Source: Mobula birostris
Taxonomy: Eukaryota
Direction: 5' to 3'
Assembly: GCF_030028105.1 (NCBI RefSeq)
Contig: NC_092370.1
Span: 220,702,005-220,766,004, forward strand
DNA length: 64,000 nucleotides
Positions within the stretch are counted from its first letter, which is position 1, and each line of letters starts with the position of its first letter. Shown here one piece after another: positions 2,801-53,491 of this stretch. The notes under the pieces were generated by a model. It had not been told where the DNA came from. It saw only the letters and a program-made list of their open reading frames with translations, and ran no database searches. A program made the translations under genes and the position numbers.

Positions 2801-3128
2801 CGGATCCTTGCTTAGAATTGTGACGAAGGTTTCTTCCTCGCCCATCACCGTACCTCATTCTGTCTCCATAGACACTGCCTAACCGGACGGCTGTTTTCAG
2901 CGCTACACCCACGCATGGCCTCCTACGCCAACCGACCCATGGAAGAAATCGTTAGGGAACTGGGGTGGGACAGGATCAACGTTACCCAGTGGTTCAGGGG
3001 TCAGTTGGGGCACACAGTTAACATCATCCTTGGATCAGGGCTGGAGAAGGGCACAGTCAACATTACCCCTGGGTCCAGGATCGGGGTGGGACAAGGGGTG
3101 ATTTAATGTGTCTGTGTCTGTTACATAG

Positions 3129-3290
3129 AACGAGGGCGCCTGTTGACGTTCGGCTGTAACAAGTACGGGCAGCTGGGTGTAGGAGACTACAGGAAACGAG
3201 ATGGCATCAACGTTCTGGTGGGGGCCCTTGGAGGGAAGCAGGTGACCAGAGTGTCGTGTGGAGACGGGTTCACCATCGCATCCACTGATG
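3129..3290 (+). CDS. NEK9: NEK9 internal exon (RCC1 repeat)
   Basis: acatag|AA ... GAT G|gtacgt, 162 nt. [54 protein letters not shown]. Confidence 0.95.
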
Positions 3291-3528
3291 GTACGTTAGG
3301 GAAAGTCGGATTTAGCCTACTCCTACATATGCATGTGCACGCACACATCTCACACACCCACACAGAGCATCACAAGTGTGTGCCTGCATACACAACATCA
3401 TGCATGAGGTTTCTGTGCTCCAATCCATGATCCCGTCTGGCATCCGTGCCCCGATCTTCGGGCTGCCTCCATCGAACCCCCCCCCCCCCAGTGTTGTGTC
3501 AGTGCTGATGACTCTGAATGTTTGGCAG

Positions 3529-3699
3529 ATAACCAGATCTTCGCCTGGGGTAACGGAGGGAATGGTCGGCTTGGAATGACAGTCAACGAGAAAGGGTTCG
3601 GCTCAGAGATCTGCACCTCATGGCCGCGGCCCATCTTCGGTTCACTGCACAACGTATCAGACTTGTCCTGTAGGGGCTGGCATACCATCCTCATAGCTG
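3529..3699 (+). CDS. NEK9: NEK9 internal exon (last RCC1 repeat)
   Basis: tggcag|AT ... GCT G|gtgagt, 171 nt. [17 protein letters not shown]...[29 protein letters not shown]. Confidence 0.95.
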
Positions 3700-4146
3700 G
3701 TGAGTGCCTGCGGCTGGCCGATACCGTCTCCCCCTGGTCACCCCGCCCCCAACAGCCCAAGGCTCCTTCCCCTCCCACCATGCAATACTCCCTCAGTACT
3801 GCTCCCTACCGCAATGTGACCCTTCCTCAGTACCACCCCCCCCCCCCACAGTGGGATGCTCCCTCAGTACCACCAACTCCCAGGTAGTCTACATTCCCAG
3901 TGTAGGATGGAGTCTTTCCCTGCTCTCTGGTCTGGATTGGTGGCACTGACGGATGGGTGCCTGTATTCCCAGTTAGTGCCCAGGATGTGCAGAGTATGGT
4001 TCACCTGTACTGCTAGCAGTCTCAGTGAGGTCTGCGGATGTGGGTGAGATCCTGTCTCCCGTCTCAAGGGCACCCGGTACTCTGCAGGGTGGGCATGATG
4101 CATGGAACAGTCTCCAGAAACCCACTCCCTGGTCTTGCCATTCCAG

Positions 4147-4206
4147 AAATCGTGTTTGTGTCCAAAACCATTCGCTCCAACAGCAGTGGGCTCTCCATTG
4201 GAGCTG
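4147..4206 (+). CDS. NEK9: NEK9 internal exon
   Basis: ttccag|AA ... GCT G|gtgagt, 60 nt. EIVFVSKTIRSNSSGLSIGA; human has SKTIRSNSSGLSIGT. Confidence 0.93.
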
Positions 4207-4815
4207 GTGAGTACCGCGTAGCATCGCTGAACCCAGCAGACACTGTCAGTGTTGGTGTGCGACTGACGTGTCATGTGGAACGAGTGTCGTACTGTGTGTG
4301 CTACAGTCAGTGTGCACCGTCACATGTGATAGGGTGAATGTGTGTTAGTGGCACTTAATTTAAAATGTGTGATCACGGAGAATAACAGGATATGTTGTGT
4401 GTAACATTGTGTTTAATACTGTGTGTGTGTGAGATACTGGGTGTAATATATGTAGGGGAGTGAACTACAATCAGTGAATGGGTGTAATTGTCATGTGTGT
4501 ACTGTGTGTGTATGTATTCACTGTCCAGGGTTTGGGGTGAGGGTGGTCAGTGTCCAGTGGCTCTTCCCTTAAGATCAGTGGATGGGGCTTTAGGAGGTTG
4601 TAACTGGTTTCCTGATCCTTCCCTTCACCCTGGATACCTCTCTCATCCCTCCCTCCACCCTGGATACCTCTCTCATCCCTCCCTCCCTTGCCCTGCCCCT
4701 GGGACCCTCCCTCCTTCACCCTTCCCCTGAGACCCTCCCTCACTCACCCTTCCCCTGAGACCCTCCCTCACTCACTCGCTTTCCCTTCCCTGGGCTGACC
4801 CTGTGGTGTGCCCAG

Positions 4816-4976
4816 TTACACAGGGCTCTCTGCCAGAGGACGACGCCGTCTCTGAGTGTGAGCGGCAAAACCGGATGAAACGAACGGCTGAGGACAGACG
4901 AGGCGTCGGCCTCTTCAACCGGCTCACCACCTCCAGCCAGCTGACTGACACCTCCTGCCCCCAGTGGCTACTACAG
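4816..4976 (+). CDS. NEK9: NEK9 internal exon (linker ending in SCPQWLLQ, first half of NEK6/7-docking region)
   Basis: gcccag|TT ... CAG|gtaggg, 161 nt, phase 1-0. End resembles human SCPGWLRK. Confidence 0.88.
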
Positions 4977-5241
4977 GTAGGGTGGAGCCTGGGGGTGGGG
5001 GAGGGGTCCACGTATGCATGGGTGTGGGTGTGGGGTGGAGGTGGATAGCTCATCTGGAGAAGATTGACTCTCTGTTTCCCCCAGAATGACTGCCCCACAC
5101 TCCCTCTCCACACAGACTGACCTTCCTCTCTGGGCATATGTGTCTGTGGTGTGCATGTCTGGGATATACGTGTGTGGGTGCACACCTGGGTGTATTCGAG
5201 TTGAGAAGTTGGTTTAATGCCTGCGCCCTATCATTCTGCAG

Positions 5242-5412
5242 GAACTGGAGAATGCCGAGTTCATCCCAATTCCAGAGAGCCCAGCTGAAGCACCTAGGCA
5301 GCCATCCAGATCAGAGGCGGACACCCTTCCTTACGGGCAGCTGAGGGCGATGAAGGACAAGGAGGGTCAGCTGCTAGAGACAGATGTTTACTCTTCAACC
5401 CAGCATCTCTCG
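5242..5412 (+). CDS. NEK9: NEK9 exon copy A (ELENAEFIPIPESP...DTLPYGQL)
   Basis: ctgcag|GAA ... TCG|gtgtgt, 171 nt, phase 0-0. Resembles human ELENAEFIPMPDSP...DTLPYEEL. Donor position less certain than acceptor. Confidence 0.88.
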
Positions 5413-5654
5413 GTGTGTGTGTGTGTCCCTCTCCCCTCTCCTGTCTCCCCTCTCCCACTCCTGAGCACCTCTTGGTATGTGTCTCTCTCTCTTTGAACAA
5501 TGTCTCTCAGTGTTCTGCATGTGTGTCCACTGTCTCCTGCTCTGTGTATCAGATCCCATGTTTCCCTCAGTCTGTCCTGGTGAGTGTTGCTCAGTGTGTC
5601 CATGTGTGCCCGGTGTGTATGTCGAGGGACCAAAGGAGGGGTGGGTGTGTGTTC

Positions 5655-5685
<31 letters not shown>

Positions 5686-6156
5686 TGTCGACGTATCCAT
5701 GGGGTGGGTGCATGTATGTGTGTCCAGGTATCCATGGGGTGTGTTGTGTGTGTATCCGTCCACAGGCCACAGGTGTGTGCGTACACATCTGTGGCTGAGC
5801 CTGCCCAGTGTGCTTCCATGTGGTTGTCTACCTGTGTGTTCATGCTGTGCGTCAACCTGTGCAAAACAGTTTCTGCACACCCCGTGTACACCTCAGTCAT
5901 AGAACCACAGAGTCATACAGCATAGAAAAAGGCCCTTCAGCCAACTCATCCAGGCCAATACCCATGTAAGTCAGTTCCATTTGCCGGCATTTGGACCAGA
6001 TCCCTCTAACCTTTTGTGTCCATGTATGTGTCCAAGTGCCAAGTCCAAACTGTAGTTTCACCTCCCTCCATCACCCTCTGTGTGGAAAAACTTGACCCCT
6101 AGTTTCCCTTTAGATCTTTCCCCTTTCATCTTAAACCTGTGCCTCTTGGTTTAGAG

Positions 6157-6475
6157 CAAAACACACAAAGTGCTGGAGGAACTTAGCAGGTTAGGCAGCA
6201 TCTGTGGAAAAGGAAAAAAGTCGACCTTTCGGGCTGAGACCCTTCTTCAGGACTGGAAAGTAAGAGGGAAGAAGCCAGAATAAGACGGTTGGGGTGAGTG
6301 GAAGAAGGACAAGCTAGAAGGCGATAGATGAAGCCAGCTGGGGCAGGGAGGGTGGATGAAGTAAGAAGCTGGGAGGTGATAGGTGGAAAAGGTAAAGAGC
6401 TGGAGAAGAAGGTATGTGAAAGGAGAGGAGAGGAGACTATGGGAGAAAGGGAAGGAAGAGGGACATCACTCTAGA
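6157..6475 (-). mobile_element. Penelope-like terminal fragment with hammerhead-like motif
   Basis: Shares the ACACACAAA.TGCTGGAGGAACT..GCAGG..AGGCAGCATC end and purine-rich tract with 14530-15165 and 59660-61030. Confidence 0.7.
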
Positions 6476-7184
6476 TTTAGACACTCTTTGCCTGACACCT
6501 CAGCTTCCTTCACCCCAGGGAAAACATCTCCAGTCTATTCAGGATGCTGCCTGGTTTACAGAACACGTCTTATGAGGAGAGGTTGAGCAACCTGGGTCTT
6601 TTCTCTTTCGAGCAAAGGAGGATGAGAGGTGACTTGATAGAGTTGTATAAGATGCTAAGAGGCACATTGAGTGGATAGCCAGAGAATTTTTGCAAGGGAG
6701 GAGATGGCTAATACAAGAGGGCATAATTTTAAGGTGATTGGAGGAAAGTATAGGGGGGATGTCAGAGGTAAGTTCTTTACACAAAGCGGTGGATGCATGG
6801 ACCACGCTGCCAGGGTGGTGGTAGTGGTAGTGGCAGATACATTAGGACATTTAAGAAACTCATAGATAAGCACATGATTGATAGAAAACTGTAGGGCTAT
6901 GTGGGAGGGAAGTGTTCGATTGATCTTAGAGTAGGTTAAGGGGTCAACACAACATTGTGCTGTAATGTTCTATGCTGGACTCAGTGCCCTGACTGATAGA
7001 GGCAATTGGACTGACACCTCCTTTATCTCCCCCACCTCAACTGTCTCCCGTGTCTACGCAGACTGCATGTGTATCTGGGTATGTGTGTACATGTCACTCT
7101 GTGTTTCTGGGGCTCATGGGTTTTGCTGCATACTGTATGCGAGTTGAGAAACCAGTTTAACATCTGCGTCCTGTCACTCCGCAG

Positions 7185-7340
7185 GAACTGGAGAACACCG
7201 AGTTCATCGCAGTCCCAGAGAGCCCAGTGGAAGCAGCTAAGCCGCCATCTCGATCGAAGGCGGAAACCCTTCCCTATGGGCAGCCAAGGGCAATGGAGGA
7301 GAGGGGTCAGGCAGCGGGCTCGGCTGATGTGCCAGCTGTG
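7185..7340 (+). CDS. NEK9: NEK9 exon copy B, tandem duplicate of 5242-5412 (ELENTEFIAVPESP...ETLPYGQP)
   Basis: ccgcag|GAA ... GTG|gtaagg, 156 nt, open frame, phase 0-0. 27 of the first 37 aa identical to copy A, and the upstream intron is homologous too. Confidence 0.72.
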
Positions 7341-8570
7341 GTAAGGAGAGATGCGCTGTGCTTGAGTCTGTCAGTAGACAGGGGTTAGGGCTCAGGACTG
7401 TGTATGGAGAATGGGGGGTGGGTTCCTCAGTTTGTGGGCCCATGTCACTATGGGTGGGGCGGCTGGGCAGGGCACTGGGTTAGAGCAGCTACATTTTGTC
7501 CTCTGTACTGAGAGCTGCACAACCACCCTATGTCACAGGTCCAGGTCAGGAGCAGGGAGCACTCACTGCAGCAGAACCATGACAAGCAGGGAGAGATGGG
7601 AGCTGGGACCTGCGCCGTACATAGGGATCAGTTTTGGTACCTGATGAGCCCCTTATCTAAGAAAGGATGTGCTGACATCAGAGAGGGTCCAGAGGAGGTT
7701 CACAGGTGACACAGTAGCCATTGGATGTGCTGATGATGAGAGACAGGATAGGCTAGGTCTGTTCTTCTGGTACTGAGGATGGGGAGGTGTGTTGGTATTA
7801 CAAGAGGGTGAATGACTTGAGTGGTGAGATGTGTTTCTAGATGGCAGGGATATTTAATATCAGAGGAATGGACACAGATCTGGTATGAGGGAAGGCTGTT
7901 GTTATGAGGGAGTAGATCAGCTGGATGGTGAGAGATATTTCTACATGGAGAGCTGTCTGATGTCAGAGAGACATGGGTCTGATGTGTGAGGGAAGAGCTC
8001 GGAGGAGCTCTGGAGATTTTCAGCCGAAAGGTGGAGGGTGTCTGACTGTGCTCCCCGAGATGGTGTGGAGGCAGAGACTCCCAACCAATATAGGGGAAGT
8101 AACGGGAGCAGTTATTTATTGAAACATCTAGTGGGACCACACCCAAGAACTGCCTTAAAAGGGTGGGGTGGGGGGGGGTAGTGGACACAGTTACTAATGG
8201 GGAGTGGAGAGGAGATGGTGCGGGTGATGGTGTAGGGTGAGGTGGTTGTCATGGTTACCAGAGGGTGGAGGAGTTTTGAACCATGACCCACTAAGTGCCT
8301 CTGGTGACAGCAATCCCACAGACCATTGAGGGGAAGGGAGGTTGGGTTACAGCAGGTGGCTAAGACACTCACCAATAGGGTTGGGCATATATCTGGTTAA
8401 CGGGGTTACCTGTGGGTAGGGGATCTGGTTACCTGGTCCCTGGTCACCGGTGATGGGGACGGGGAGAGGAGGGGTGAGATGACTGGAGCTGGGAGGGATG
8501 CCTGGTGCAATTGATTGAATGTGTTCCCCCCTGCACCCCGGGTGTCTCTCCCCCACCCCTCCCCATGCAG

Positions 8571-8768
8571 GTGAATGGAGCAGACTTAGGGGACGGTTCC
8601 ACATTTCCCAGGCAACGGTGTGTGTGTAGTGAAGTACAGGCAGAGCTCGGACAGCTGGAGCAACGACTGACAGAGTGCGTCAGGCGGCAGCAGGCATTGG
8701 AAGAGGAGAACCGGCACTCTGGGGCTGAGATCCACCGCCTGAGTGAGGTGCTGGAGTTACTTTCCCGG
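8571..8768 (+). CDS. NEK9: NEK9 exon (coiled coil)
   Basis: atgcag|GTG ... CGG|gtatgt, 198 nt. CVCSEVQAELGQLEQRLTECVRRQQALEEEN resembles human [31 protein letters not shown]. Confidence 0.9.
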
Positions 8769-8904
8769 GTATGTGTGCGTTCGCTATCACCAACGCCTTC
8801 CTATACGAACCGCCCCACAGCCTCATCCTTAGCACAACAGGACTGAGAGAGAGATGCAGGGTGACTAGGCTCTCTCCAGCCTGCGCCGCTACCTGCAACG
8901 CACG

Positions 8905-10320
8905 GAACTCCCACCCCACTCCCTGCACTCCATGCTGCCTCACTCCCTACACCCACGTCCTATTCCCTCCAGCCCACCCCATTCTGCCTCACTCCCTACA
9001 GCTCCGTCCTGCTGCCTCCAGCCCACCCCATTCCCTGCACCCCATTCTGCCTCATTTCCTCCAGCCCACCCCACTCCCTGCACTCCATGCTGCCTCACTC
9101 CCTACACCCACGTCCTGTTCCCTCCAGTCCACCCCACTCCCTGCACTCCATGCTGCCTCACTCCCTACACCCACGTCCTGTTCCCTCCAGCTCACCCCAC
9201 TCCCTGCACTCCATGCTGCCTCACTCCCTACACCCACGTCCTGTTCCCTCCAGCTCACCCCACTCCCTGCACTCCATGCTGCCTCACTCCCTACACCCAC
9301 GTCCTGTTCCCTCCAGTCCACCCCACTCCCTGCACTCCATGCTGCCTCACTCCCTACACCCACGTCCTGTTCCCTCCAGTCCACCCCACTCCCTGTACTC
9401 CATGCTGCCTCACTCCCTACACCCACGTCCTGTTCCCTCCAGCTCACCCCACTCCCTGCACTCCATGCTGCCTCACTCCCTACACCCACGTCCTGTTCCC
9501 TCCAGCTCACCCCACTCCCTGCACTCCATGCTGCCTCACTCCCTACACCCACGTCCTGTTCCCTCCAGCTCACCCCACTCCCTGCACTCCATGCTGCCTC
9601 ACTCCCTACACCCACGTCCTGTTCCCTCCAGTCCACCCCACTCCCTGCACTCCATGCTGCCTCACTCCCTACACCCACGTCCTGTTCCCTCCAGCTCACC
9701 CCACTCCCTGCACTCCATGCTGCCTCACTCCCTACACCCACGTCCTGTTCCCTCCAGTCCACCCCACTCCCTGCACTCCATGCTGCCTCACTCCCTACAC
9801 CCACGTCCTGTTCCCTCCAGCTCACCCCACTCCCTGCACTCCATGCTGCCTCACTCCCTACACCCACGTCCTGTTCCCTCCAGTCCACCCCACTCCCTGC
9901 ACTCCATGCTGCCTCACTCCCTACACCCACGTCCTGTTCCCTCCAGTCCACCCCACTCCCTGCACTCCATGCTGCCTCACTCCCTACACCCACGTCCTGT
10001 TCCCTCCAGCTCACCCCACTCCCTGCACTCCATGCTGCCTCACTCCCTACACCCACGTCCTGTTCCCTCCAGCTCACCCCACGCCCTGCACTCCATGCTG
10101 CCTCACTTCCTACAGCTCCGTCCTGCTGCCTCCAGCTCACCCCACTCCCTGCACTCCATGCTGCCTCACTCCCTACACCCACGTTCTGTTCCCTCCAGCC
10201 CACCCCATTCTGCCTCATTTCCTCCAGCCTGCCCCCACGCCCTGCACCCCATGCTGCCTCACTCCCCACAGCTCTGTCCTGCTGCCTCCAGCCCACCCCA
10301 CTCCCTGCACCCTATCCCAT
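8905..10320. repeat. 63-bp minisatellite (about 17 near-perfect units at 9071-10140 plus degenerate flanks)
   Basis: Unit CCACTCCCTGCACTCCATGCTGCCTCACTCCCTACACCCACGTCCTGTTCCCTCCAG(CT/TC)CACC recurs every 63 bp (9071, 9134, ...). Confidence 0.97.
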
Positions 10321-10384: not shown

Positions 10385-10438
10385 ATGGAACAGAGGCTGA
10401 AGGTTAATGAGGAGACGGTGAATCATTTGGAACAGCAG
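10385..10438 (+). CDS. NEK9: NEK9 probable small coiled-coil exon (MEQRLKVNEETVNHLEQQ)
   Basis: Pyrimidine tract + tgacag|ATG ... CAG|gtcagt, 54 nt, phase 0-0, heptad-like composition. No recalled human counterpart. Confidence 0.65.
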
Positions 10439-10967: not shown

Positions 10968-11138
10968 GTGCAGAGTCAGGAGGAGGAGAATCGTCGGCTG
11001 TGGGCTGCTGTGCGTGCCCTGGGAGAGCAACGAACGGGTAGCAGTGGGGAGAGGGTGACAGAGGCTGAAGCAGGACCTTCCCAGCCCCCCAGTCCTGCCT
11101 CACCCCCAGGCTCCGGCTCCTTCTGCCACATCGAGTAG
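10968..11138 (+). CDS. NEK9: NEK9 probable terminal coding exon (VQSQEEENRRLWAAVRAL...SGSFCHIE*)
   Basis: ctttgtctacag|GTG, open for 56 codons to TAG at 11136-11138, continues the heptad pattern. Confidence 0.65.
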   Translation: MQSQEEENRRLWAAVRALGEQRTGSSGERVTEAEAGPSQPPSPASPPGSGSFCHIE

Positions 11139-14054: not shown

Positions 14055-14291
14055 CTACCTCTTGGAAGGGCCAGGCCAGCTGCGCAGACTCATGCACTTG
14101 GAGATGTGTCCCTCAGCAACGCTGTGCTCAAAGCGGCGGCTGCAGGAAGGGCACTGCATGAAGTCCGGGCGGTTTGCGCCCGCTGGTGCCGTTTGAGCTG
14201 CCTTCCTGCGGCGGTACACCTCCAACTCGGCCTGCTGGGCAGCGTGCAGCATCCGGATAAAGGAATCGTGCTTCTTCTTCCAGTTGACTTT
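14055..14291 (-). CDS. ZC2HC1C: ZC2HC1C last coding exon (second C2HC zinc finger)
   Basis: ttggcacag|AAA, 237 nt to TAG. KVNWKKKHDSFIRML...PDFMQCPSCSRRFEHSVAEGHISKC resembles human SNWRQKHESFIRTL...PDYIQCPHCSRHFAPKVAERHIPKC (recalled). Confidence 0.92.
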   Translation of the reverse strand, partial: KVNWKKKHDSFIRMLHAAQQAELEVYRRRKAAQTAPAGANRPDFMQCPSCSRRFEHSVAEGHISKCMSLRSWPGPSKR

Positions 14292-14529
14292 CTGTGCCAA
14301 GGATGAATGGGAAAAGATCTATTTCACTACCCTCCACAGTGAGCCAAGACCACCCGTCCCCACACACACAGGCAGCAGTTTACAACATCATGTGTCTATC
14401 CTGGCAACCAAGACTGTCCTGAAGGACGGGCCTGGACAACACTCCAATACAGAGTGTAGAGAATACTGGGATCAGTACTGGTGGAGACGTGTCTGTCACT
14501 GTATAACACCAGGTTACAGTATCAGTGGG

Positions 14530-15165
14530 TCATGAACAGAAACAAATCTGCAGATACTGGTGGAGGTCTTGAGCAGCACACACAAAATGCTGGAGGAATT
14601 CAGCAGGTCAGGCAGCATCTATGGAGGGATATGAACAGTTGACATTTTGGGCCAAGACCCTTCACCTGGATTGGAAAGGGAGGGGGCAGAAGCCAGAATA
14701 AGAGGATTTTGATAGGAGAGAACAGTGGACCATGGGAGAAAGGAGAGAACAGACACCAGAGGAGGGTGATGGACAGGTAACGAGAAGGGGTGAGAGGGTA
14801 ACCAGAATGGAGAATGGGAAAAGAGAAGTGGGAGAGGAGAGGAAATCGATGTTCATGCCATCAGGTAAGACAGAATATGAGGTGTGGCTCCTGAAACCTG
14901 AGAACGACCTCATTGTTGCATTAGAAGCCATGGACAGACTTTGTCAGAATGGGAATATGAAGTGAGTGACCGTTGGAAAATTCTGCCTTGTATAGTGGAC
15001 AAAGTAAAGGTGCTTGACGAAGAGGTGCCAGAAACTACATCAGGTCGTAATGATGTAGAGGAGGCCACACTGGGAACTGCAGGTATAGTAGATAACCTCA
15101 ATAAACTTGCAAGCGAAATGTTGCATCACCTGAAAAGATTATTCGGGACCCAGAATAGTAGCGAA
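14530..15165 (-). mobile_element. Penelope-like element 3' remnant
   Basis: PDGMNIDF C-terminal motif plus the shared terminal sequence at 14575-14670. Confidence 0.7.
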
Positions 15166-17700
15166 GGAGGAGGTGAATAGAGGGCCGTTCTTCTGGTTGG
15201 CTGCTGGTGGCCAGTGGTGTTCTGCAGGAGTCTGTATTGGGACAGCTTCTCTTCGCAATATAGGTCAATGATTTGGAAGATGGAATTGATGGCTGTGTGG
15301 CCAAGTTTGCAGACGATACAAAGATAGGTGGAGGGGCAGGTGGCGTTGAGCAAGCAGAGAGTCTACAGAAGGACTGATTATGAGAATGGGCAAAGAAGTG
15401 GCTGATGGAATATAGAGTAGGAAAATGTATGGTCATGCTCTTGATAGAAGGAATAGAGGCATAGACTCTTCTAAACGGAGCAAATTCAGAAATCCAGCGA
15501 TCTCTGCGGAAAGTGAAATGCGTGTGCGGGGGAGGGGGTGGTTGCTGTGGAAGATGAACTTGCTGGCAGGATCCCGTTGGAGATGGCGGAAGTTAGGGAG
15601 AATATTGTGCTACTCCGGCTTCTGCCCTCCCCCCACCTTCTAGGCCTGATGAAGGGGCTCAGCCCTAAACGTCGACTATTCATTACTCTCTATAGATGCC
15701 ACCTGACCTGCTGAGTTCTTCCAACATTTTGTGTGCGTTCCACGGTGTCGGTGGGACCGGGTCTGTTACTATATAACACCAGGGCATAGTACCGGTGGAG
15801 ATGGCATGTCTCTATGACATCGGGTATAGTGCCGGTGGAGACGGCCTGCCACTGTATAACACTGGGGTACGGTACTCCAGTGCATTTTTTTAACCAGCCC
15901 TTTGAAACTTGATTCAAGAGCTTGTCAGAGTATTTCTGAGACCCGCTCCCAACACACTCCTGTGCCATCCTTTGGGTGGAAACTGGTTAGTTTGGCACAA
16001 TGAGAGGGTGGAACAGCCTGTATCCTCTCTAACATTCACTTCTGCCCTCAGTTCTTGTTCTAAGCCTCTGCATTTCGGGTTTCTAACAACCCCAGAGTTC
16101 CACAATTTTTGCAATTCCCACAGAGAGATGAGAGACAGCCTGAGAACTGAAACACTCCATGCCAGACTTCTCTGCATCCTGTCCAGCCACTGGGCAGAGA
16201 TCTTCGCCTGTGGTCTAGCCAATGTTTACCAACATGTTTACTCAGACATTTTCTGCTCTGGCTCACACACAAAATGCTGGAGGAACTCAGCAGGTCAAAC
16301 AGCAGCTATCGAAAGTTGACGTTACCGGCCGAGACTGATGAAGGTCTGACCGGCTGATTTTCTCCAGCTTTTTTTGTGTGTTTTACTCTGGATTTCCACC
16401 AACTGCAGAATCTCTTGTGTTTATGACTCTGCTCTGACTCATTAAGCAAGTCGTCTTCACCTTTAGAGTACCCTCTGGGGCCCCAACACCAGTGAGACTT
16501 TCCAAAGTGCAAAACCTCCCACAAGTTGAGGCCCTTCCGTCCCGTGCTGACCTGTTACCCTGCCTAGTCCCATCGATCCGTACTTGGACCATGCCCCTCC
16601 CATCCACGTACCTATCCAAACTTCTTATCAATGTTGAAACCGAACCCGGATTTACCACTTCCGCTGGCAGTCCTTCCACACTCTGACCACCTTCGGAGTA
16701 AAGATCCCCTTCATCTTCCCCTTAAATATTTAACCTTTCACTCTTAACCCCCACTACCTTGAGTTCTAGTCTCACCCAAGCTCAGTGGGAAAAGCCTGCT
16801 TGCGTTTAACCTATCTATACCCCACCTAATTTTATATACCTCTATCAAATCTCCCCTCATTCTCCAACCCTCCAGAGAACAAAGTCTTAACCTATTCAAC
16901 TTTTCCTTGTCATCTCGGGTCCTCAAGTCCCGGTACAATCCTTGTAATTTTTCTCTATACTCTTCCAATCTTATTGACATCTTTCCTGTAAGTACGTGCC
17001 CAGAACTGCACACAATGTTTTCTTTTCTTTCGCCAAAGTTGGAGTATTGTGTGCAATAATATTCCACGCTGTATACACCCCACCTACATCCAAGTCGCTA
17101 ATATGAATCACAAACCAGAAGGGCCCTAGCCGCGATCTGTGCGGTGTACCACTGGTCACAGACTTCCGGTCAGCGAGATCTCCATCCATCGCCACCACCC
17201 CGCCTCCGGTTACCGAGGCCGTGTTGTGTCCATTTAACCAGCATGCCCACCCACTACAGTATACGGTTTCAGCAGGTGGGGTAAACCAGGTGAGGGTAGC
17301 CGGCGGGCCCCATACCCCGGTGAGATGGGGACATTTTTGCCCTGGCATGTGACGTCAGCTCCAGCGCCGTGGACGGATGAGATCCACCGGCCAGGAAAGC
17401 GGTTCTGCAACGCTTCGTTGAAAGCGAAGCGCCTGACAAGGCACAGAAGTCATGATCTTCCACTGCAACCAAGGAAGCCCCCAGTTGTGACGATTACTCG
17501 TACCACTGGACCCAGACCTCTGAGGTCGAGAGAGAATTGTCCTAATGCAATGGCGTTTCCATTTCAGAAGGACTCTCCCGCGCAGGTTTCAAAAACTGTC
17601 GGACAATCAATCACTCTTAGGCAATGGACTCCTGAACAGGTTTGTTTTGTCACATCCTCCCGTCCCCCTGTACACCTTCTGGGGAAGCCCCTTTCCTCAC

Positions 17701-19281
17701 CGGTATCGGAACAATCTTGTGGCTGCATTGATAGTTCTCCAGATCCGTCCCCTTGGCCCTCTTTTGCGCAGAGTCGTATATTTTCCGTTTCCGCTTGTAC
17801 ACCTTCTTGCAGATCTCCATGTGTGTGTCGAGTCGATCCAGAACGAATCGGCGGCCGCAGTACGAGCAGTGAGACTTCTCCTCGGGGGAGTAGTGTCCGT
17901 CCCAGCCCACATCCCCGCTCTGCACGCCGTCTCCGCGCTCTGTCTCATCAACTTCCGTGTTCCGTGAGTTCTGCTTCACTTCGGCTGGACTCTCGGTGTA
18001 ACCTGCAAAAGGGTTTGAGTGGTCGCAGTCGTCTTCTGCGACCTGCGGGCTCTCGTCTCTGACTGCTGCCCCTGTGTCGCTCCCTCCTTCCCTCCTGTCA
18101 CTCTCTCCTCCCGCCCTGTGGCCATTTGCACTCTCCCAGTTTCCACCACCCACTTGACTCTCTCCCCTCACCCTCACTCTATCCCTCAGCCTCACTTCTC
18201 TTTCTATTTCACCCAGCCTTTCTTTCTCCGACCTCTCCCACTTCTCCCTTTTGATCCTCTCCCTCGCCCTTCCTCTCTCTTCCCTCTCACTCCCCATTTC
18301 TCTTTTCGCTCGCTCGCCCTCCGACCAATGTCTCCCTGACTTTTCCCCTTCTGATCTTTTTGACCTGTCCCCTGTTCTTCTTGACCTTTGCCTCTCTGAT
18401 CGCCTTCTCTCTGATCTCTCCCTATCCCTTTCTGACCCCTCTCTCTCTGACCTCTCCCCCTCTGAACTTCCCCCCTCTGACCTCTCCCCCTCCGACCTGT
18501 GCCTCCCCAAACTGTCCCTCCTCTCCCACCCCCTCTCCCTCTCCCACTCCTTCTCCATCCTCATTATCTCGACGCCTTCTGCCCCCTCTTCGTCCTCCTT
18601 CTCTTCCTCCTCCTCCTCCTCAGCCTCCCGCTGCCTCTGGATGTCCCTCAGCTCCGCCTCGATCCTCCTCAGCTGCTGCTCGATGAGGTTCTCCCTGCTG
18701 CGTCCCTGGTCTGCCAGTGAGCAAGGCTGGGGCCGCTGCCCTGCCCGACCTCGGTGGCGAGGTCGCGGCGGCTCGAGCTCCGTCTCCCTGGCCTTGTCGC
18801 TGGGGGCTTTGTGTGGGGAGGGACGGTAGGTGACGCCAGGCCATGGCGGGGCTTCCTGTCGCAGGAGCCTCTGCCGGTCCGATCCAGGGCCCCCTGGGCT
18901 GACGTCGCTGCAGGGTCCGGCTGCTCTGTCGATGGGCTTCAGGGGCTGGGACCTGTCGATTCCCGGGCACCGCTTGGACCCAGGTAACCAACTGGGCTGT
19001 TGCTCTTCGGCGCGGTAAGGCTGTGGCGGGCGGGGAGCCTGGGGGAGGCAGGTGGCCCGTAGTCGGAGCAGAGCCTGGTGGTACTGCTGTCGGTATATGG
19101 CCGTCAGTTTCGCCTGTCTCTCCTTCTCCAGCCTCTGCTGCAGCCGCTCCCTCAGCACATCCAGTTTGGAAAAGCCGGGGGTTTCAGAGCTGATGGGGGG
19201 CAACTTGCTGGAGCCCCTCCCCCTGCCGATGGGGGACAGTGGGTCGATCTGTAGATAGGGGCCCATGGGCCAAACGGCCAT
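17701..19281 (-). CDS. ZC2HC1C: ZC2HC1C large first coding exon (coiled coil, charged repeat, first C2HC zinc finger)
   Basis: Acceptor ctcacag (exon starts 19297), ATG 19281, CCG|gtgagg donor at 17700, 527 codons. CSYCGRRFVLDRLDTHMEIC...KRKIYDSAQKRAKGTDLE. Tail-to-tail with NEK9 as in human. Confidence 0.92.
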
Positions 19282-20859
19282 TAACTGGCCCAGTGATCTG
19301 TGAGGGTAAGGAGAGCGAAATTATTGTTGGGTGGAGAGGGGATGGGAGGTGGAGGAGCCGGGGCAGAGGAAGTGGGACGGGGAGATAAGGCAAGGGCGGG
19401 GGTGGGGGGGGAGCGAGGAAGGGGAGACCTGACAGAAGAACCTTCATTCACAACCCCCTGCCCAACGAGGTCAGCCATAGTGTCTGTGTGGAAACAATCT
19501 CCAGAAACCCTTGGGATCCATGGCACATTGGTATCTAAGGAGAGTCGTACTGTGGGAAAAGCAGCACTGTGGCTTACACTGAGGGAGGGGTGGTAATGAA
19601 GGAGCGTCGGTACAAATGGGGATCACACTGCGGGAGAAGCGATGCTGAGGGAGCGCCGCACCCTAGAAGTAATCAGTACTTAGAGAGGACCACACTGTGG
19701 CAGGGACGGTAATGAGGTTGCGTCGTTCGTTCAGAGGGTCGGTAGTGAGGGAGTTTACGACAATGCCAGAGCACACGGGGGAAGTTAAGGTACTCAGGTA
19801 ACCCACTGCCCTTCCATCTTGCTAACGTTGGCGACATCTGTCCCTCCAATTCACTTTGACCATTGACTGTATAACCCGGCGCAGAGATCCGTTCTGCTTC
19901 TGTAGTCTCATTGGAAGATCCCTGCATCCGCCCCCGCCCCCCCCCCATGAATCTCTATATTCAGAGCTGTGACTCCCGCTCCTGACTTAAATCCTCCACG
20001 TCACACCTGAAACTTGTACAGCTCGGATCTTTAAGCTCCCAACCCTCTGTAACACCATAACCGTCGTAGGGATCAGCTGACGTCCCCGACAGCCTCCCTC
20101 ATCACCCTGGTCCCGAACCGAACTCTCTGCCCTGCCCATTCGACCATTTGTCCTTTAGATCTGGCTCAGTCTCCCCATCTGCGGCCCAATGCTCCAGTCG
20201 CCATCGACTCCTGTATACTGTATATCCATTCCCCAAGTCTAACTGATATGCGGAGAAATTTCTTTAGCCAGAGGGTGGTGAATTTGTGGAATCTGTTACC
20301 ACAGGCAGCTGTGGGGGCCAGGTCGTTGGGTGTATTTAAGGCATCAAAGGTTACGGGGAGTGGGGCTGAGGAGAGGGAAAAAGGGAACAGCCATGATTGA
20401 ATGTCGGAGCAGAATCGATGGGCCAAATGGCCTATTTCTGCTCCTATGTCTTATGATATAACTGCTCACCAGTTACTTGGTGAATGCCGTCCTCAATTTG
20501 AAACCCCGGGCAAAGTCATTCCTTTCTGGGGGGGGGGGGGTGGCGGGGAGGTTGGAGTGAATGCAAAAGATCAACTGTTGTTAGTGCCCTGGGGGGCATC
20601 TGGGCCCAGCGCGTTATCCACTTTCTTAGGTGCTGAACTTCCGCATCTCCCGACCTCCTCCCAAAATAGACAACCCCTCTTTAATATCCCCAATTGACTA
20701 CTAATTTCACTTCCCTCACCCCCACCCCTTCTCTCCCCCATCCCACCCCTTCCCTCTCTCCATCGCACCCCCCATCCCTCTCTCCAACGCTCACTCCCCC
20801 AAGGAAATTTTTCTCGGAAAGTAGTTTTACAGACCTGGGACCTATTCCTTCTGCAGCTA

Positions 20860-33400: not shown

Positions 33401-35173
33401 CAGCCCTGGGGAAAAAGTCTCTGGCTATTCAATCTGCCTCCTGTCATCTTGTACACCTCTGTCAAGTCACTTCGCTCCAAAGAGAAAAACCCTAAAAGAC
33501 ACAGCCGTCAGATTTCTGAACCGACAATGAACACTTCCTCCCTATTTTTGAACTACGCATTTAATTTTAAAAGTTTATTATGTGTTTCTTATTGTAATAT
33601 AGTAATTTTATACAGTCCACTGTCCCAAACAACTTTCACGACATGTCATTGACGCATGGTCTCCATCCAGACTGGATTCCGGAGTAACTCATTGAGGACC
33701 GTAGCGGTTGTACAGGACGCTAGGGAGGGGAGACATATGTACGTACAAAACTCACCGCAGTTACTTACCCAGGCTACTCCGTCAGCCCCTTCCACACCCC
33801 AACTCGCCCTCCCTGACGGACGTGGGCAGTGGGCGCAGGGAACACCACCACCTTCAGGTCACCCCTCTCCCCCCCACCCCCACCACAATCCCACGCCATC
33901 CTGTCTTGGGGTACAAACCTGGGAAACTCCCTCCCCACCAGCGCCGTGGGCGTCTCTTCACCAGAAGGATTACGAATCTCCAAGGGGTAGGGGTTGTACC
34001 CCACCTCCAGCTTCTCAGAGGCAGTCAGGGATGGGTGATCAGGAGTGAAACGTGTCAGAGGGAACCCTCACCGTCCGGGTCTTCCAACACCACCACACCA
34101 GCATCAGACGGAAGCTAATTCGGCAGAGGTGTGGGAACTGGGGTGATCATGCTGAGGACAGAGAAGTTGGTTTACACAGACAGGCAGTGCGTAGTGAGAC
34201 TGCTAGCAAGGAGAGGCTGATGATAGGGCAAAATTGTAGTCAACGGGATGAGTTGCAATGTAAATGGCGGACAAAATCGAAAGGGGTGATGAATACAGGG
34301 CTGAAAGTGTAACGTTTGAATGCTCGCAGCATACGGAATAATTTAGAGCACGGTTACGGATTGCCATGAATGACGTAGTGAGCGTCACTGAATCGTGGCT
34401 GAAAGATTATAGCTGGGAGCTTAACGTCCAAGGATACACATTGCATCGTAAGGACAGGGAGGTAGGCAGAGGGGGTGGGGTGGATCTGATGGTAAAAATA
34501 ATGAAATCAAATCATTAGAAAGAAGTGAAATAGGATCGGAAGGTGTAGAATCGTTGTGGGTAGAGCTAGGGAAATGCAAAGGTAAAAAGACCCTAATGGG
34601 AGTTATATACAGACCTCCAAGCAGTAGTAAAGATATGGTCTACAAATTACAGCGATATATAGAAAATTGATGTCAAAAGAGTAATGTTACAATAGACATA
34701 GGGAATTTCAATATTCAGGTATTGGGAAAATCAGGTTGCTACAGGATCTCAAGAGGGGGAATTTCTAGAATGCCTATGAAAAGGCTTTTTAGAGCAACTT
34801 GTGGTAGAGTCTAGGGGATTGGCCATTGTGGATTGGGTGTTGTGCAATAAACCAGAATTGATTAGAGACCTTACTGTAAACCCTTAGGGCCAGTGATCAT
34901 AATATGATAGAATTTACCCTGCAGTTTGAGGAGAAGTTAACGTCAGATATATCAGTATTGCAGTGAAGTAAAGTGAATTAGAGGCATGAGAGAGGAGCTG
35001 GCTGAAGTTGATTGGAAGGGAACTCAAGTGGGGATGACAGCAGAGCAACAATGGCCGTACTTTCTGGGAGCAATTCAGAAGGTGCAGGACGGCTACATCC
35101 AAAAGAAGTATTCTAAAGGCAGGATGATACAACTGTGGCTGACACGGGACATCAAAGCCAACATAAAAGCCAA

Positions 35174-38100
35174 GGATGGTTTGTTGCCTCCCGGGTGCTA
35201 GGGTCAAGGATGTCTCTGATCGATTGCATGACATTCTGAAGTGGGAGGGTGATCAGCCAGATGTCGCGGTGCACATCGGTACCAATGACATAGCAAGGAA
35301 GAGTGAGGAGGTCCTGGAGAGTGAGTATAGGGAGCTTAGTAGAAAGTTGAAAAGCAGGACCTCGAAGGTGGTAATCTCAGGATTGCTACCTGTGCTACGT
35401 GCCAGTGACGGTAGGAATAGGATGCTCTGGAGGATGAACAAGTGGCTGAGGAACTGGTGCAGGGGGCAGGGTTTCAGATTTCAGGATAATTGGGACCTCT
35501 TCTGGGGCAGGTGGGTCCTGTACAAGAGAGACGGGTTACACTTGAACTACAGGGGGGCCAATATCCTTTCAGGGAGGTTTGTTAGTGCTATTGGGGAGGC
35601 TTTAAACTAGATTTGCAGGGGGATGGGAACTAGAGTGCCAGAGCTGACAGTGTGGCTGGGGTGAAAATAAATGATGTTAAAAGTTCAAGCAAACCCGCTA
35701 ATAGAAAGGTTGTGAGTGGTGGTAAAAATCTTCTGAGGTGTATATATTTCAATGCTAGGAGTATTGTGGGGAAAGCGGGTGAGTTGAGGGCGTGGATTGA
35801 CACTAGAATTATGACGTTATAGCAATTAGTGAAACTTGGCTACAGGAGGGACAGGACTGGCAGCTTAATATTCCAGGGTTCCAATGTTTCAGCTGTGATC
35901 AAGGCAGAGGAATGAAAGGTGGGGGAGTAGTATTGCTTGTTAGGGAAAATATTACAGCAGTGCTCAGGCAGGACAGATTAGAGGGCTTGTCTACTGAGGC
36001 CTTATGGGTGGAGCTGAGAAACAGGAAAGGTATGGCCACATTAGTGGGATTGTATTACAGACCACCCAATAGTCAACGAGAATTGGAAGAGCAAATCTGT
36101 GAGAGATAGCAGGCAACTGCAGGAAACATAAAGTTGTGGTGGTAGGGGATTTTAATTTTCCATATATTGATTGGGACTCCCATACTGTTAGGGGTCTAGA
36201 TGGTTTAGAGTTTGTAAAATGTGTTCAGGAAAGTTTTCTAAATCAATATATAGAGGGACCAACTAGAGGGGATGCAATATTGGATCTCCTGTTAGGAAAC
36301 AAGTTAGGACAAGTGACGAAAGTCTGTGTCGGGGAGCACTTTGGTTCCAGTGATCATAACACCATTAGTTTTAACTTGATCATGGACAAGGATAGATCTG
36401 GTCCTAGGGTTGAGGTTCTTAACTGGAAGAAGGCCAAATCTGAAGAAATGAGAAAGGATCTAAAAAGCGTGGATTGGGACAGGTTGTTCTCTGGCAAGGA
36501 TGTGATCGGTAGGTGGGAAGCCTTCAAAGGAGAAATTTTGAGAGTGCAGAATTTGTATGTTCCTGTCAGGATTAAAGGCAAAGTGAATAGGAATAAGGAA
36601 CCTTGGTTCTCAAGGGATATTGCAACTCTGATAAAGAAGAAGAGGGAGTCATATGACATGTATAGGAAGCAGGGAGTAAATAAGGTGCTTGAGGAGTATA
36701 AGAAGTGCAAGAAAATACTTAAGAAAGAAATCAGGAGGGCTAAAAGAGGACATGAGGTTGCCTTGGCAGTCAAAGTGAAGGATAATCCAAAGAGCTTTTA
36801 CAGGTATATTAAGAGCAAAAGGATTGTAAAGGATAAAATTGGTCCTCTTGAAGATCAGAGTGGTTGGCTATGTGCGGAATCAAAGGAAATGGGGGGTATC
36901 TTAAATAGGTTTTTTGCGTCTGTGTTTACTAAGGAAACTGGCATGAAGTCTATGGAATTAAGGGAAACAGGTAGGGAGATCATGGAAACTGTACAGATCG
37001 AAAAGGAGGAGGTCCTTGCTGTCTTGAGGAAAATTAAAGTGGATAAATCCCCGGGACCTGACAGGGTGTTCCCTCAGACCTTGAAGGAGACTAGTGTTGA
37101 AATTGCAGGGGACCTGGCAGAAATATTTAAAATGTCGCTGTCTACAGGTGAGGTGCCGGAGGATTGGAGAGTGGTTCATGTTGTTCCGTCGTTTAAAAAA
37201 GGATCGAAAAGTAATCCGGGCAATTATAGGCCAGTAAGTTTAACGTCGGTAGTAGGTAAGTTATTGGAGGGAGTACTAAGAGACAGAATCTACAAGCATT
37301 TGGATAGACAGGGACTTATTAGGGAGAGTCAACATGGCTTTGTGTGTGGTAGGTCATGTTTGACCAATCTATTGGAGTTTTTCGAGGAGGATACCAAGAA
37401 AGTGGATGAAGGGAAGGCAGTGGATATTGTCTACATGTACTTCAGTAAGGCCTTTGACAAGGTCCCGCATGGGAGGTTAGTTAGGAAAATTCAGTCGCTA
37501 GGTATACATGGAGAGGTGGTAAATTGGATTAGACATTGGCTCAATGGAAGAAGCCAAAAAGTGGTAGTAGAGAATTGTTTCTCCAAGTGGAGGCCTGTGA
37601 CTAGTGGTGTGCCACAGGGATCAGTGCTGGGTCCATAGTTATTTGTCATCTATATCAATGATCTGGATGATAATGTGGTAAATTGGATCAGCAAATTTGC
37701 TGATGATACAAAGATTGGAGGTGTGGTAGACAGTGAGGAAGGTTTTCAGAGCCTGCAGAGGGACTTGGACCAGCTGGAAAAATGGGCTGAAAAATGGCAG
37801 ATGGAGTTTAATACAGACAAGTGTGAGGTATTGCACATTGGAAGGACAAACCAAGGTAGAACATACAGGGTTAATGGTAAGGCACTGAGGAGTACAGTGG
37901 AACAGAGGGATCTGGGAATACAGATACAAAATTCCCTAAAAGTAGCATTACAGGTAGATAGGGTGGTAAAGAGAGCTTTTGGTACATTGGCCTTTATTAA
38001 TCAAAGTATTGAGTATAAGAGCTGGAATGTTATGATGAGGTTGTATAAGGCATTGGTGAGGCCGAACCTGGAGTATTGTGTTCAGTTTTGGTCACCAAAT

Positions 38101-38612
38101 TACAGGAAGGATATTAATAAGGTTGAAAGAGTGCAGAGAAGGTTTACAAGGATGTTGCTGGGACTTGAGAAACTGAGTTACAGAGAAAGGTTGAATAGGT
38201 TAGGACTTTATTCCCTGGAGCGTAGAAGAATGAGGGGAGATTTGATAGAGGTATATAAAATTATGATGGGTATAGATAGAGTGAATGCAAGCAGGCTTTT
38301 TCCACTGAGGCAAGGGGAGAAAAAAACCAGAGGACATGGGTTAAGGGTGAGGGGGGAAAGTTTAAAGGGAACATTAGGGGGGGCTTCTTCACACAGAGAG
38401 TGGTGGGAGTATGGAATGAGCTGCCAGATGAGGTGGTAAATGCCGGTTCTTTTTTAACATTTAAGAATAAATTGGACAGATACATGGATGGGAGGTGTAT
38501 GGAGGGATATGGTCCGTGTGCAGGTCAGTGGGACTAGGCAGAAAATGGTTCGACACAGCCAAGAAGGGCCAAAAGGCCTGTTTCTGTGCTGTAGTTTCTA
38601 TGGCGTCTATGG
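35174..38612 (+). mobile_element. Young 5'-truncated CR1 LINE: ORF1 SGNH/GDSL esterase C-terminal part plus near-complete ORF2 (APE + RT) with a few stops and frameshifts
   Basis: CLPGARV..VHIGTND..DGLHLN (35176-35610); VVGDFNFP, SDHN, NYRPVSLTS, SGVPQGSVLGP, KFADDTK; TTCTATGG-type tail. Confidence 0.95.
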
Positions 38613-50649: not shown

Positions 50650-51049
50650 CTGCGGTCAGAGCAGAGTCAATGAGCTCCACCCGTACAGCACCCCAAACCC
50701 ACCCGAGCACGAGAGATCAACCCCCCCCCCCCACCCCCACCCACTGAGCTCCGGGTCTACCCCAAGACCGGTCCATCACTGCTGCACATGCCACTGGCGT
50801 CACTGGGAACAGAGCAGAGAGTCAATGAGCCCCGTCTGAACACCATCTACCCAACCCCTCCATCCCAACTCCAACCAGCCTGCACATTGAGTGACGCTCC
50901 CTCCACACCATCCCATCACACGCTGCAGGGTCAGGGGTTTGAGGGGGGTAGGGGATGGAATGGGATGAGGGGCGAGTCAGGGACCAGACTGAGGGTGTGG
51001 TGCTCTGGGAACCAACCTCACTCCCCCCACCCTGCTGCCTAGCAGTCAC

Positions 51050-51678
51050 CTGTCGGTCATGTTTTCGTCCGATGCCTTGTGTTCCTGGCTGCAGTCCATG
51101 CCTTCACCGGGGGTGGCAGGGGGCCGGGAGCCGCGCTGGCTGCCCCCTCCCTCAGGCAGCCGCTGCTTCTTGTGTTGGCAAGGCCCGGAAGGGCTCCAGG
51201 GGCAGGGAGGGGCCGCCGGCTCAGACACCTTCAGTTTCTTCTGCAGGGAGGAGGTGACATCGGCGGGGGGCTTGGCCCGGCGCCTCCTGCGGCCCTGCCC
51301 TGGGCCCTGACCTCCCTCCGCCGGACCGTCGCCCTCACCCCAGGCTGACTGCCTGCCCTTCAGCGTCACATTGAGGGAGGAGAGGCGCTGAACGACCGCC
51401 CGATCGTCGTCCGAGTCACTGGGAGCTCCCGCCGCGGCGCCCCCTCCGGCCGCCGTCTCCTCCTGGCTGGAACCAGACGCCTCGCTAAAACAGCGGCCAT
51501 AGTCGAGCGGCCGGTTCGAGATGGAGCGCCGTTTCCGGCCCCGGCGCTTGCGGGTCTGCCGCCGCTGGGGCTGGCGGGGGCTGGGGCACGGCCCCTCCCA
51601 CCCCTCCTCGTCCAGACGGTTCTGCTCAGATGTCTCGTCCAGCGCAGACGCCAGGTCATGGGCCAGCTCGTCCATCAT
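51050..51678 (-). CDS. GPATCH2L: GPATCH2L first coding exon
   Basis: Acceptor ttcccag (exon starts 51702), ATG 51678, AG|gtgact donor. MDELAHDLASALDETSEQNRL...RKRRGRKRRS...SLQKKLKVS...SDENM. No G-patch domain in the model, fitting GPATCH2L rather than GPATCH2. Confidence 0.93.
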
Positions 51679-53491
51679 CGGAGGGGTGGGTGGGGTGCGT
51701 ACCTGGGAAACAGAAATGAAGGGTGGGCAGGAGTTAGACGGGCAGGGGACTGGAACTCCACAGACTCTGTCTGAGTTCCAACGAAAGCTCTCAGCCCAAA
51801 CAGTGACTGTTTATTCCCCTCCACAGATGCTGCCTGACCTGCTGGTTTCCTCCAGCATTTTGTGCGTTGGTTCTTGCTGCCTCAGTAGAGGAGGCAAAAG
51901 AAATTCATGTCCTTGTTGACTCTTACCAATTTATAATAATGTGCTACAGAAAGCACCCTATCCGATGCATCATGGCTTGGTATGGTGACTGCTCTGCCTG
52001 TGACTGCAAGAAACTGCAGAGTTGTGGACACAGCTCAGCACATCACAGAAACCAGCCTCCCCTCCACTGACTGTCTAGATTTCTCACTGCCGCAGTAACG
52101 CAGTGCAATCAAAACCCCACCCACCCAGACAATCTCTCCCCCCACCCCCCACTTCCATCAGGCAGAAGATACAAAAGTCAGAAAGCACAAAACACCAGGC
52201 TCAAGGACAGCTTCTATCCTGCTGTTATAAGACTATTGAATGGTCCCTTACTACAATAAGCAGGATTCTTTGCTTCACAATCGACCTTGTTATTACCTTG
52301 CACCTTATTGTCGGCCGCCACTGCACTTTCTCTGTAGTTTTCTGCATTCTGTTACTGTTCTCCCTTGTACGGGCTCAATGCACCATGTAATGAAATGATC
52401 TGCATGAATTGTATGTAAGACAAGCTTTTCACTGTATCTCAGTACAGGTGACAATAATAAACCAGCCACACAAATCCCAAGCAACAAATGAGGAACAGCA
52501 ACCCACCCCTGCATCCACCCCCACCCCCACCCAACCAGCCATTCACAGCCCCCCCGACTCACCCTACTGAGATAACCAGCCCACCCAGCCCTGTGCTGGA
52601 GCAGCTGGTTCCGCTGACGGGGACTTATCCTGTCCCAGTCACGGAGACAGACAAGGTCTCCGATGCTGGAGTCCTGGACCAAACACAGACTGCTTCAGGG
52701 ACGACCAGGTGGAAGATCCTAACTGTGCCTTCCTCTGCACAGAGGCTGCCTGACCCACTGAGCTTCTCCAGCAGCTGATCTTCCTCCTGGAACATTAACC
52801 CTGTCTCTCATCCCACGGATGCTGCCCAGCGTGCTGGGTATTTCCAGCACTTTTTCACTTCAAACTTCCAGCAATTGCTCACTCTCCCCAGTACAGCCCC
52901 AGCTCCCACTCTCCCCTCATGTCATCCATTTTCTCTGGTGCTCCACTCTTTTAGCTCTGTGCAAATGATGGGTTTGGATTTCATCCTTGATCTGATGAAA
53001 GGCTCTCTGTTGCAGCCCCCACAGCTGCTGCCTGACCCTCAGCATTTGATGGGACAACTGGTTTACATTCCACTCCAGTTTTGCAGACAACCTTGACCCA
53101 CTGCAATAGGTCTAAGGCAGACACCAGTTTCGTCACCCAGCACTCATCTCTGGAACATCTAACCTGCGAGATTAACTAGCAGTCGAGTTGATGGTCAGGA
53201 AGGAAAATGCAATATTAACACTCATTTCGAGAGGACTAAAATATATAAAGGCAAGGATGTAATGCTGCGGCTTTATAAGCCATTGGTCAGACTGCACTCG
53301 GAATATTGTGAGCAGTTTTGGGCGTCCGCACTTTACGTTAACGTGTCTTCAGGCCATGCCACGCAGGGTCTTGTGCTAATATTATTTTGAGACTGCAAGT
53401 GCTGCACCATAACTACATGTGCTGTGTGTGACTATATGAACTGTGTTTTGCACCTTAGCCTCAGAGGCATGTTGTTTAGTTTAGCTGTATA

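Follow-up and report, generated by a model that had tools for sequence, protein, structure and literature searches.

The window analyzed here is a stretch of 64,000 nucleotides of Mobula birostris DNA (contig NC_092370.1, positions 220,702,005 to 220,766,004) that carries NEK9 exons on the plus strand. Protein mapping placed the exons for the RCC1-like domain and the start of the tail at positions 1171-1332, 1783-1891, 3129-3290, 3529-3699, and 4147-4206, the last three of which were also present in assembled contigs. The next exon (4816-4976) ends in CPQWLLQ, the equivalent of human residues 808 to 814, and provides the N-terminal half of the NEK6/7 docking motif. Two homologous exons follow on the same strand, copy A at 5242-5412 (171 nt, 57 amino acids) and copy B at 7185-7340 (156 nt, 52 amino acids). 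The downstream exon at 8571-8768, located by protein mapping and in the contigs, encodes the end of the linker, a CxC element, and the presumed start of the coiled coil, which was placed there from its position in human NEK9. The last two coding exons were mapped to 10385-10438 and 10968-11138, stop codon included.

A protein search with exon A returned a single protein, NEK9 isoform X1 of Mobula hypostoma (P0003), in which A and B stand in tandem; the amino acids of both copies are identical to those of the window over the stretches compared. Alignment of P0003 to the window exons and the 20 kb upstream gave an exon-by-exon match, with 85 to 100% identity on most exons; the six residue differences from the window lie in three exons other than A and B. 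P0003 contains a Pkinase domain (residues 43 to 295) and a WD40_RLD domain (residues 344 to 711). On these sequence grounds, the gene is a NEK9 ortholog with a predicted N-terminal kinase, an RCC1-like propeller, and a C-terminal tail, which confirms the initial annotation.

Both copies are free of stop codons, bounded by AG and GT, and in phase 0-0; their lengths are multiples of three, and all four exon combinations keep an open frame. The intron between them measures 1,772 nt and is of the GT-AG type. The positions, frames, and boundaries given for the two exons in the initial annotation were exact, and its two similarity counts were reproduced: alignment showed 27 of the first 37 amino acids to be identical, as are 39 of the 51 nt preceding the acceptors. 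In a control comparison, the same 51 nt matched the nine other acceptors of the gene at only 11 to 22 positions. The local alignment score of A against B was 236, compared with a maximum of 39 among 200 shuffles. The upstream homology noted initially is therefore real over those 51 nt but reaches farther, since 5070-5190 and 7021-7133 are identical at 71 of 110 aligned positions, a score equaled by none of 300 shuffles. The homologous intron flanks thus span 5070-5241 before copy A and 7021-7184 before copy B. Identity is lowest in the far flank (65%), higher in the near flank (76%), and highest over the first 114 bases of the exon (82%), and each segment outscored all 300 shuffles. The exon tails (5356-5400 and 7299-7340) revealed no significant likeness, as 27 of 300 shuffles reached the same score. 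The duplicated unit is the exon together with about 170 nt of the preceding intron. A DNA search of the genome (G000) found no copies of the exon besides A and B. In Mobula, the donor of copy A coincides with the opening GT of a (GT)n run. Copy B had been credited with the stronger donor; a crude consensus count gave 6 of 9 for each, the lowest values in the gene.

The intron after position 4976 splits the docking motif between residues 814 and 815 (human numbering, from Haq et al. 2015, PMC4632185), and copy A completes it. CPQWLLQ followed by copy A contains the whole stretch from C808 to P825, with no change at 815 to 825, which supports the assignment of exon A to the C-terminal half of the motif and of the upstream exon to the CPxWL half. 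According to the accessible part of Haq et al., residues 810 to 828 of human NEK9 are the minimal NEK7 site, and W811, L812, and L816 fill a groove. The same part of that paper reports that NEK7 binding is ablated by P809A, W811A, L812A, L816A, F821A, and I822A and reduced by M824A and P825A. The upstream exon and copy A match human NEK9 at all essential residues (P809, W811, L812, E815, L816, F821, and I822). Batoids differ from human NEK9 in adding one or two copies of the stretch that begins at 815, none of them with the anchor at 809-812.

Splicing was followed in assembled contigs of four out of eight available presumed-RNA runs, two per organism and study, over the region 3100-8900. The GT..AG joints 4976>5242, 5412>7185, and 7340>8571 were present in all four. 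Three runs (X3, X5, and X7) yielded a single unbroken contig from 3128 to 8768 through both copies, and run X1 yielded one contig reaching the end of B and another with the 7340>8571 joint. Exon-skipping joints were absent from the 15 best-supported joints, besides which 208 less supported ones exist; assembled contigs lose rare forms, and the inclusion result applies to the dominant form. In that form, A and B are spliced into the same mRNA. In these exons the second organism is about 1.5% divergent; the differences listed for A and B number three, all of them synonymous, and one further difference lies in B. Public gene models already include both exons. Copy B, for which the initial annotation had considered the fate of a neutral pseudo-exon, is present in transcripts and intact in relatives.

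That the pair is an assembly artefact or a silent pseudo-exon has a practically negligible probability. Near-identical doubles of the exon in two hypothetical bony-fish models (described below) are what such an artefact could look like, but the core identity of A and B is only 82%, orthologous A and B exons occur in two dasyatids (support 92/91 and 97/98), and splicing of both copies in the contigs of two organisms refutes this reading.

An exon profile was run over 141 NEK9 proteins, mostly predicted models. A single copy was detected in 123 of them and two copies in 13; 3 proteins contained three, and 2 partial sequences contained none. Every batoid protein (14 of 14) had more than one copy, always in tandem. 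Two copies were detected in Mobula, Hypanus, Hemitrygon, Pristis, Leucoraja, Amblyraja, and two skate-type Logan proteins derived from 4-kb contigs, and three in the electric ray Narcine. The extra copy is thus present in seven of seven named batoid species, which we take to represent all four batoid orders. The number of orders follows the portion of the Squalomix preprint that could be accessed (10.1101/2025.06.08.657570). A single copy was found in 10 proteins of six sharks (Heterodontus, Stegostoma, Hemiscyllium, Rhincodon, Cetorhinus, and Carcharodon) and in three proteins of the chimaera Callorhinchus. The sharks sampled belong to three galeomorph orders, a set that lies apart from Carcharhiniformes and squalomorph sharks, and a protein search with a shark query gave no further lineage. 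The initial proposal of a lineage-specific trait therefore holds, but its scope is wider than one species, covering all four batoid orders and none of the six sharks or the chimaera. Return to one copy was seen in none of the seven batoids, though copy number did change, as the three copies in Narcine demonstrate.

Doubled exons also appeared in two bony-fish models. In Acipenser sinensis (P0033, residues 742 to 837), the copies are identical, the hypothetical model is flagged UNVERIFIED_CONTAM, and A. ruthenus has one copy. The double in the hypothetical model of Conger conger (P0111, residues 795 to 887) is near-identical, and its second copy starts inside the motif. Both may be artefacts or independent recent duplications and were set aside.

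The initial annotation had proposed exclusive splicing, in which the CPQWLLQ exon would join either A or B in some tissue or stage and the docking peptide would change. Several features would suit such a switch: the shared 0-0 phase and four open combinations, the donors that score weakest in the gene by the crude count, and the presence of W811, L812, L816, F821, and I822 in the product if copy B of this species were joined directly to the upstream exon. The order 4976>A>B>8571 in 4/4 runs and the tandem arrangement in 14/14 batoid proteins nevertheless speak against it; no batoid protein is single copy, including three Mobula, two Pristis, and three Narcine isoform sequences. Joint inclusion also keeps the frame, and the A-B intron is 1,772 nt long and GT-AG, so that neither a short intron, a U12 site, nor a decay-based mechanism would force exclusion, and Hypanus B carries L816P. 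Inverted repeats that could act as docking and selector elements amounted to nine pairs of 14 to 19 nt, 79 to 93% complementary and mostly purine/pyrimidine rich, a number that carries no chance control; nothing convincing as selector-type RNA pairing around the exons was found among them. An exclusive switch is judged highly improbable. NEK9 resembles the exclusive-exon class of Martinez-Gomez et al. 2022 in that the two internal exons are homologous neighbors, alike in phase and close in length, and that the pair is old and conserved. It departs from tandem duplicated exon substitution because its copies co-occur in one transcript, which the strict definition excludes (PMC9741552, as far as available; the term "NEK9" is absent from the available main text).

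Joint inclusion had also been predicted to add a second half-motif. Inclusion does occur, but the added half-motif lacks equivalents of P809, W811, and L812. In the joined protein, the residues directly before copy B are the tail of A, which places S, Q, and H at positions 809, 811, and 812. Copy B of Mobula keeps E815, L816, F821, and I822 and differs from A by A819T, P823A, and I824V. Among the eight downstream copies of the named species, W811 and P809 occur in none and L812 in one. Changes at 815 to 825 (one to four each) were found in seven of these eight copies and in none of the seven first copies. Among the 133 first or single copies, whose rows include isoforms and related species and are not independent, none deviates at A819, I822, or P823. 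L816 is changed in three of the eight downstream copies and I822 in one; the skates show L816M, P823S, and P825 changes. Retained in 8/8 are E815, N818, E820, F821, and TLP[YF], and in Pristis B and Narcine B the half-motif has one change or none. The TLPYxxL element, conserved in 119 of 139 proteins, is TLPYGQL in copy A of the window and TLPYGQP in copy B; its final L is replaced by P in five of the eight downstream copies, stingray and skate B among them. An S-P pair at 827-828, to which we presumptively ascribe a CDK role in its duplicated form, is found in six of eight; a literature search for phosphosites S827 and S869 found none. Complex prediction with a stand-in NEK7 kinase domain (P0239, residues 100 to 386) and copy B in its context (P0003, residues 830 to 875), run as a single prediction free of controls, gave no answer (score 0.00, uncertain peptide fold) and carries no weight for or against docking. 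Kinase docking by copy B is most likely absent, because the W/L/P anchor needed in the human mutagenesis is missing.

A tree of 21 copies, built under LG+G4 from an alignment of their first 56 residues (58 columns), came with a long-branch warning; the Acipenser, Conger, Lepisosteus, bird, primate, and Logan skate rows were left out. Stingray A copies grouped with A (92/91) and B copies with B (97/98), which indicates, as judged from this tree, that the duplication is older than the Mobula-dasyatid split. The skate copies clustered together (100/100), as did those of Narcine (91/99). A single clade of all last copies was rejected (p-AU 9e-6). A clade of Pristis B with stingray B was neither recovered nor rejected (p-AU 0.25), and the same holds for stingray A plus B (0.43). 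The tails of Mobula A and Pristis A (LETD) scored 26 against each other, compared with 9 to 17 for cross pairs, and this very short stretch hints at a shared origin. The grouping of copies by order implies homogenization or repeated duplication. A single origin on the batoid stem, with later gene conversion or unequal crossing-over inside the individual orders, appears somewhat the better account, and one old origin would be simpler than two to four separate batoid duplications. Internal protein repeats that arise by co-included exon duplication and evolve in concert form a general class. NEK9 resembles such repeats in having a symmetric exon in a disordered region, a copy number of two to three, and likeness within lineages; it differs in that the repeated unit is half of an intron-split kinase-docking motif, of which the first copy alone is complete.

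Between the docking motif and the CxC that precedes the coiled coil lie 107 to 157 residues in batoids and 65 to 76 in sharks, chimaera, coelacanth, bird, and primate, which makes the batoid linker 1.4 to 2.4 times longer. Residues 750 to 891 of NEK9 lie within a predicted disordered region, as stated in the accessible part of PMC8172835. The end of copy A is unstable, as dasyatid models stop 17 residues earlier and Pristis has two donors. The changes in B, the loss of TLPYxxL, the linker lengths, and the unstable end of A would fit a spacer with little sequence dependence.

Taken together, these results point to a phase 0-0 exon that, with its upstream intron flank, was duplicated in tandem and became fixed in batoid NEK9, both copies entering the same mRNA in the dominant form. 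Because copy A follows the CPxWL exon, the protein retains one complete NEK6/7 docking motif, and copy B, placed after the tail of A, would chiefly lengthen the disordered linker between the motif and the coiled-coil start. The longer linker may be tolerated because NEK7 activation would need dimerization, not a fixed spacing. In the part of Haq et al. that could be consulted (PMC4632185), activation needs NEK9 self-association, and GST replaces the coiled coil, less efficiently. We consider this combination of a co-included batoid exon duplication, a lengthened linker, and no switch of partner to be the likely reading as a whole.

Several observations speak against an extra copy that only adds length. 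The A/B comparison over 37 codons (10 synonymous and 10 nonsynonymous differences) gave a dN/dS of 0.27 (Fisher p 0.009), which indicates selection on one of the copies or on both; constraint on A by itself accounts for part of this ratio. Among stingrays, exon B has changed no more than the exon after it: it differs from dasyatid B copies at 2 and 5 of 52 amino acids, compared with 7 and 9 of 66 in that exon. The residues kept in all eight downstream copies, the near-intact half-motifs of Pristis and Narcine, and the failure of any sampled batoid to revert point the same way. These data would suit an extra copy selected for a function of its own, such as weak additional binding of NEK6/7 that acts through avidity or rebinding, an extra S-P phosphosite, or a second partner site at TLPY. 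Its retention throughout the four orders, the S-P pair in most downstream copies, and the synonymous nature of the three listed differences in the second organism favor such a function. Against it stand the absence of W811 from every downstream copy, the L816P of Hypanus and the skate changes, and docking-stretch changes (9 of 44 positions, one branch) that are no rarer than variable-stretch changes (28 of 96, two branches). Moreover, homogenization from copy A alone would keep the motifs apparently intact. Selection for a separate function is therefore considered unlikely, though worth keeping in view.

A broader proposal is that no batoid has had fewer than two copies since the ancestor of the group because selection favors the longer, repeated linker, which would retune the pairing of NEK6/7 by the NEK9 dimer or add a weak second site, with the copies homogenized in each order. 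We regard this as speculative and rather unlikely. If true, a core mitotic kinase cascade would have been rewired throughout the clade, setting rays and skates apart from sharks.

Duplication of an exon within a disordered linker, with both copies included, is a known kind of event and not a new splicing switch. A literature search, whose coverage mostly excluded subscription papers, found no description of a doubled NEK9 exon. The noteworthy part is the batoid-wide retention with homogenization at the level of orders. The doubled exon cleanly separates batoids from sharks as a marker within a conserved mitotic kinase, and it offers a natural experiment on the spacing tolerance of the model of NEK9-induced NEK7 dimerization, with linkers of 65-76 versus 107-157 residues and one to three half-motifs. 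Its importance would be greater if the extra copy proved to be selected for binding or activation.

The tail of the window NEK9 ends in SFCHIE, without the tetrapod-type WCLL LIR, and contains no TQT. KxTQT, which we take to be the LC8 motif, was absent from every chondrichthyan protein checked. Orthology stands despite the missing WCLL and LC8 motif because neither is vertebrate-wide (PMC8172835, seen in part). The accessible part of that paper confines the NEK9 LIR to land vertebrates and the coelacanth, and the word "shark" is absent there. Nine shark and ray NEK9 proteins (P0003, P0005, P0007-9, P0011, P0012, P0134, and P0138; 11118-11138 in the window) end in FC[HQ]IE, an LIR-like aromatic-x-x-I; the tetrapod counterpart near the end is WCLL. 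In skates and Callorhinchus, the F of this site is replaced by S, and the two lamniform models end differently. If FC[HQ]IE is functional, the LIR would be older than stated and would have been lost in ray-finned fish.

Other features were observed around the gene. The NEK9 intron after exon 8571-8768 holds a minisatellite (9058-10207) with a 63-nt unit, 18.3 copies, and 96% matches. A two-finger C2HC zinc-finger gene lies convergent with NEK9 on the minus strand (14055-19320); its two zf-C2HC_2 matches both fall marginally below the curated cutoff, and its long exon has a low-complexity R/S/E-rich stretch that stems from a pyrimidine-rich repeat. Human NEK9 is presumably adjoined by a convergent C2HC zinc-finger neighbor as well, ZC2HC1C. 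At 35167-38439, ordinary remains of a LINE-type retroelement were recognized by eye from esterase-like and reverse-transcriptase-like frames. An open frame on the minus strand at 51046-51810 gave no Pfam match; we assume that it resembles the start of a GPATCH2-like protein. Elsewhere in the genome (L003:1039-2364; G000 C12), a single open frame of 442 codons encodes a NEK-like kinase domain that is 63% identical to the NEK9 query stretch and belongs to an intron-poor member of the NEK family.
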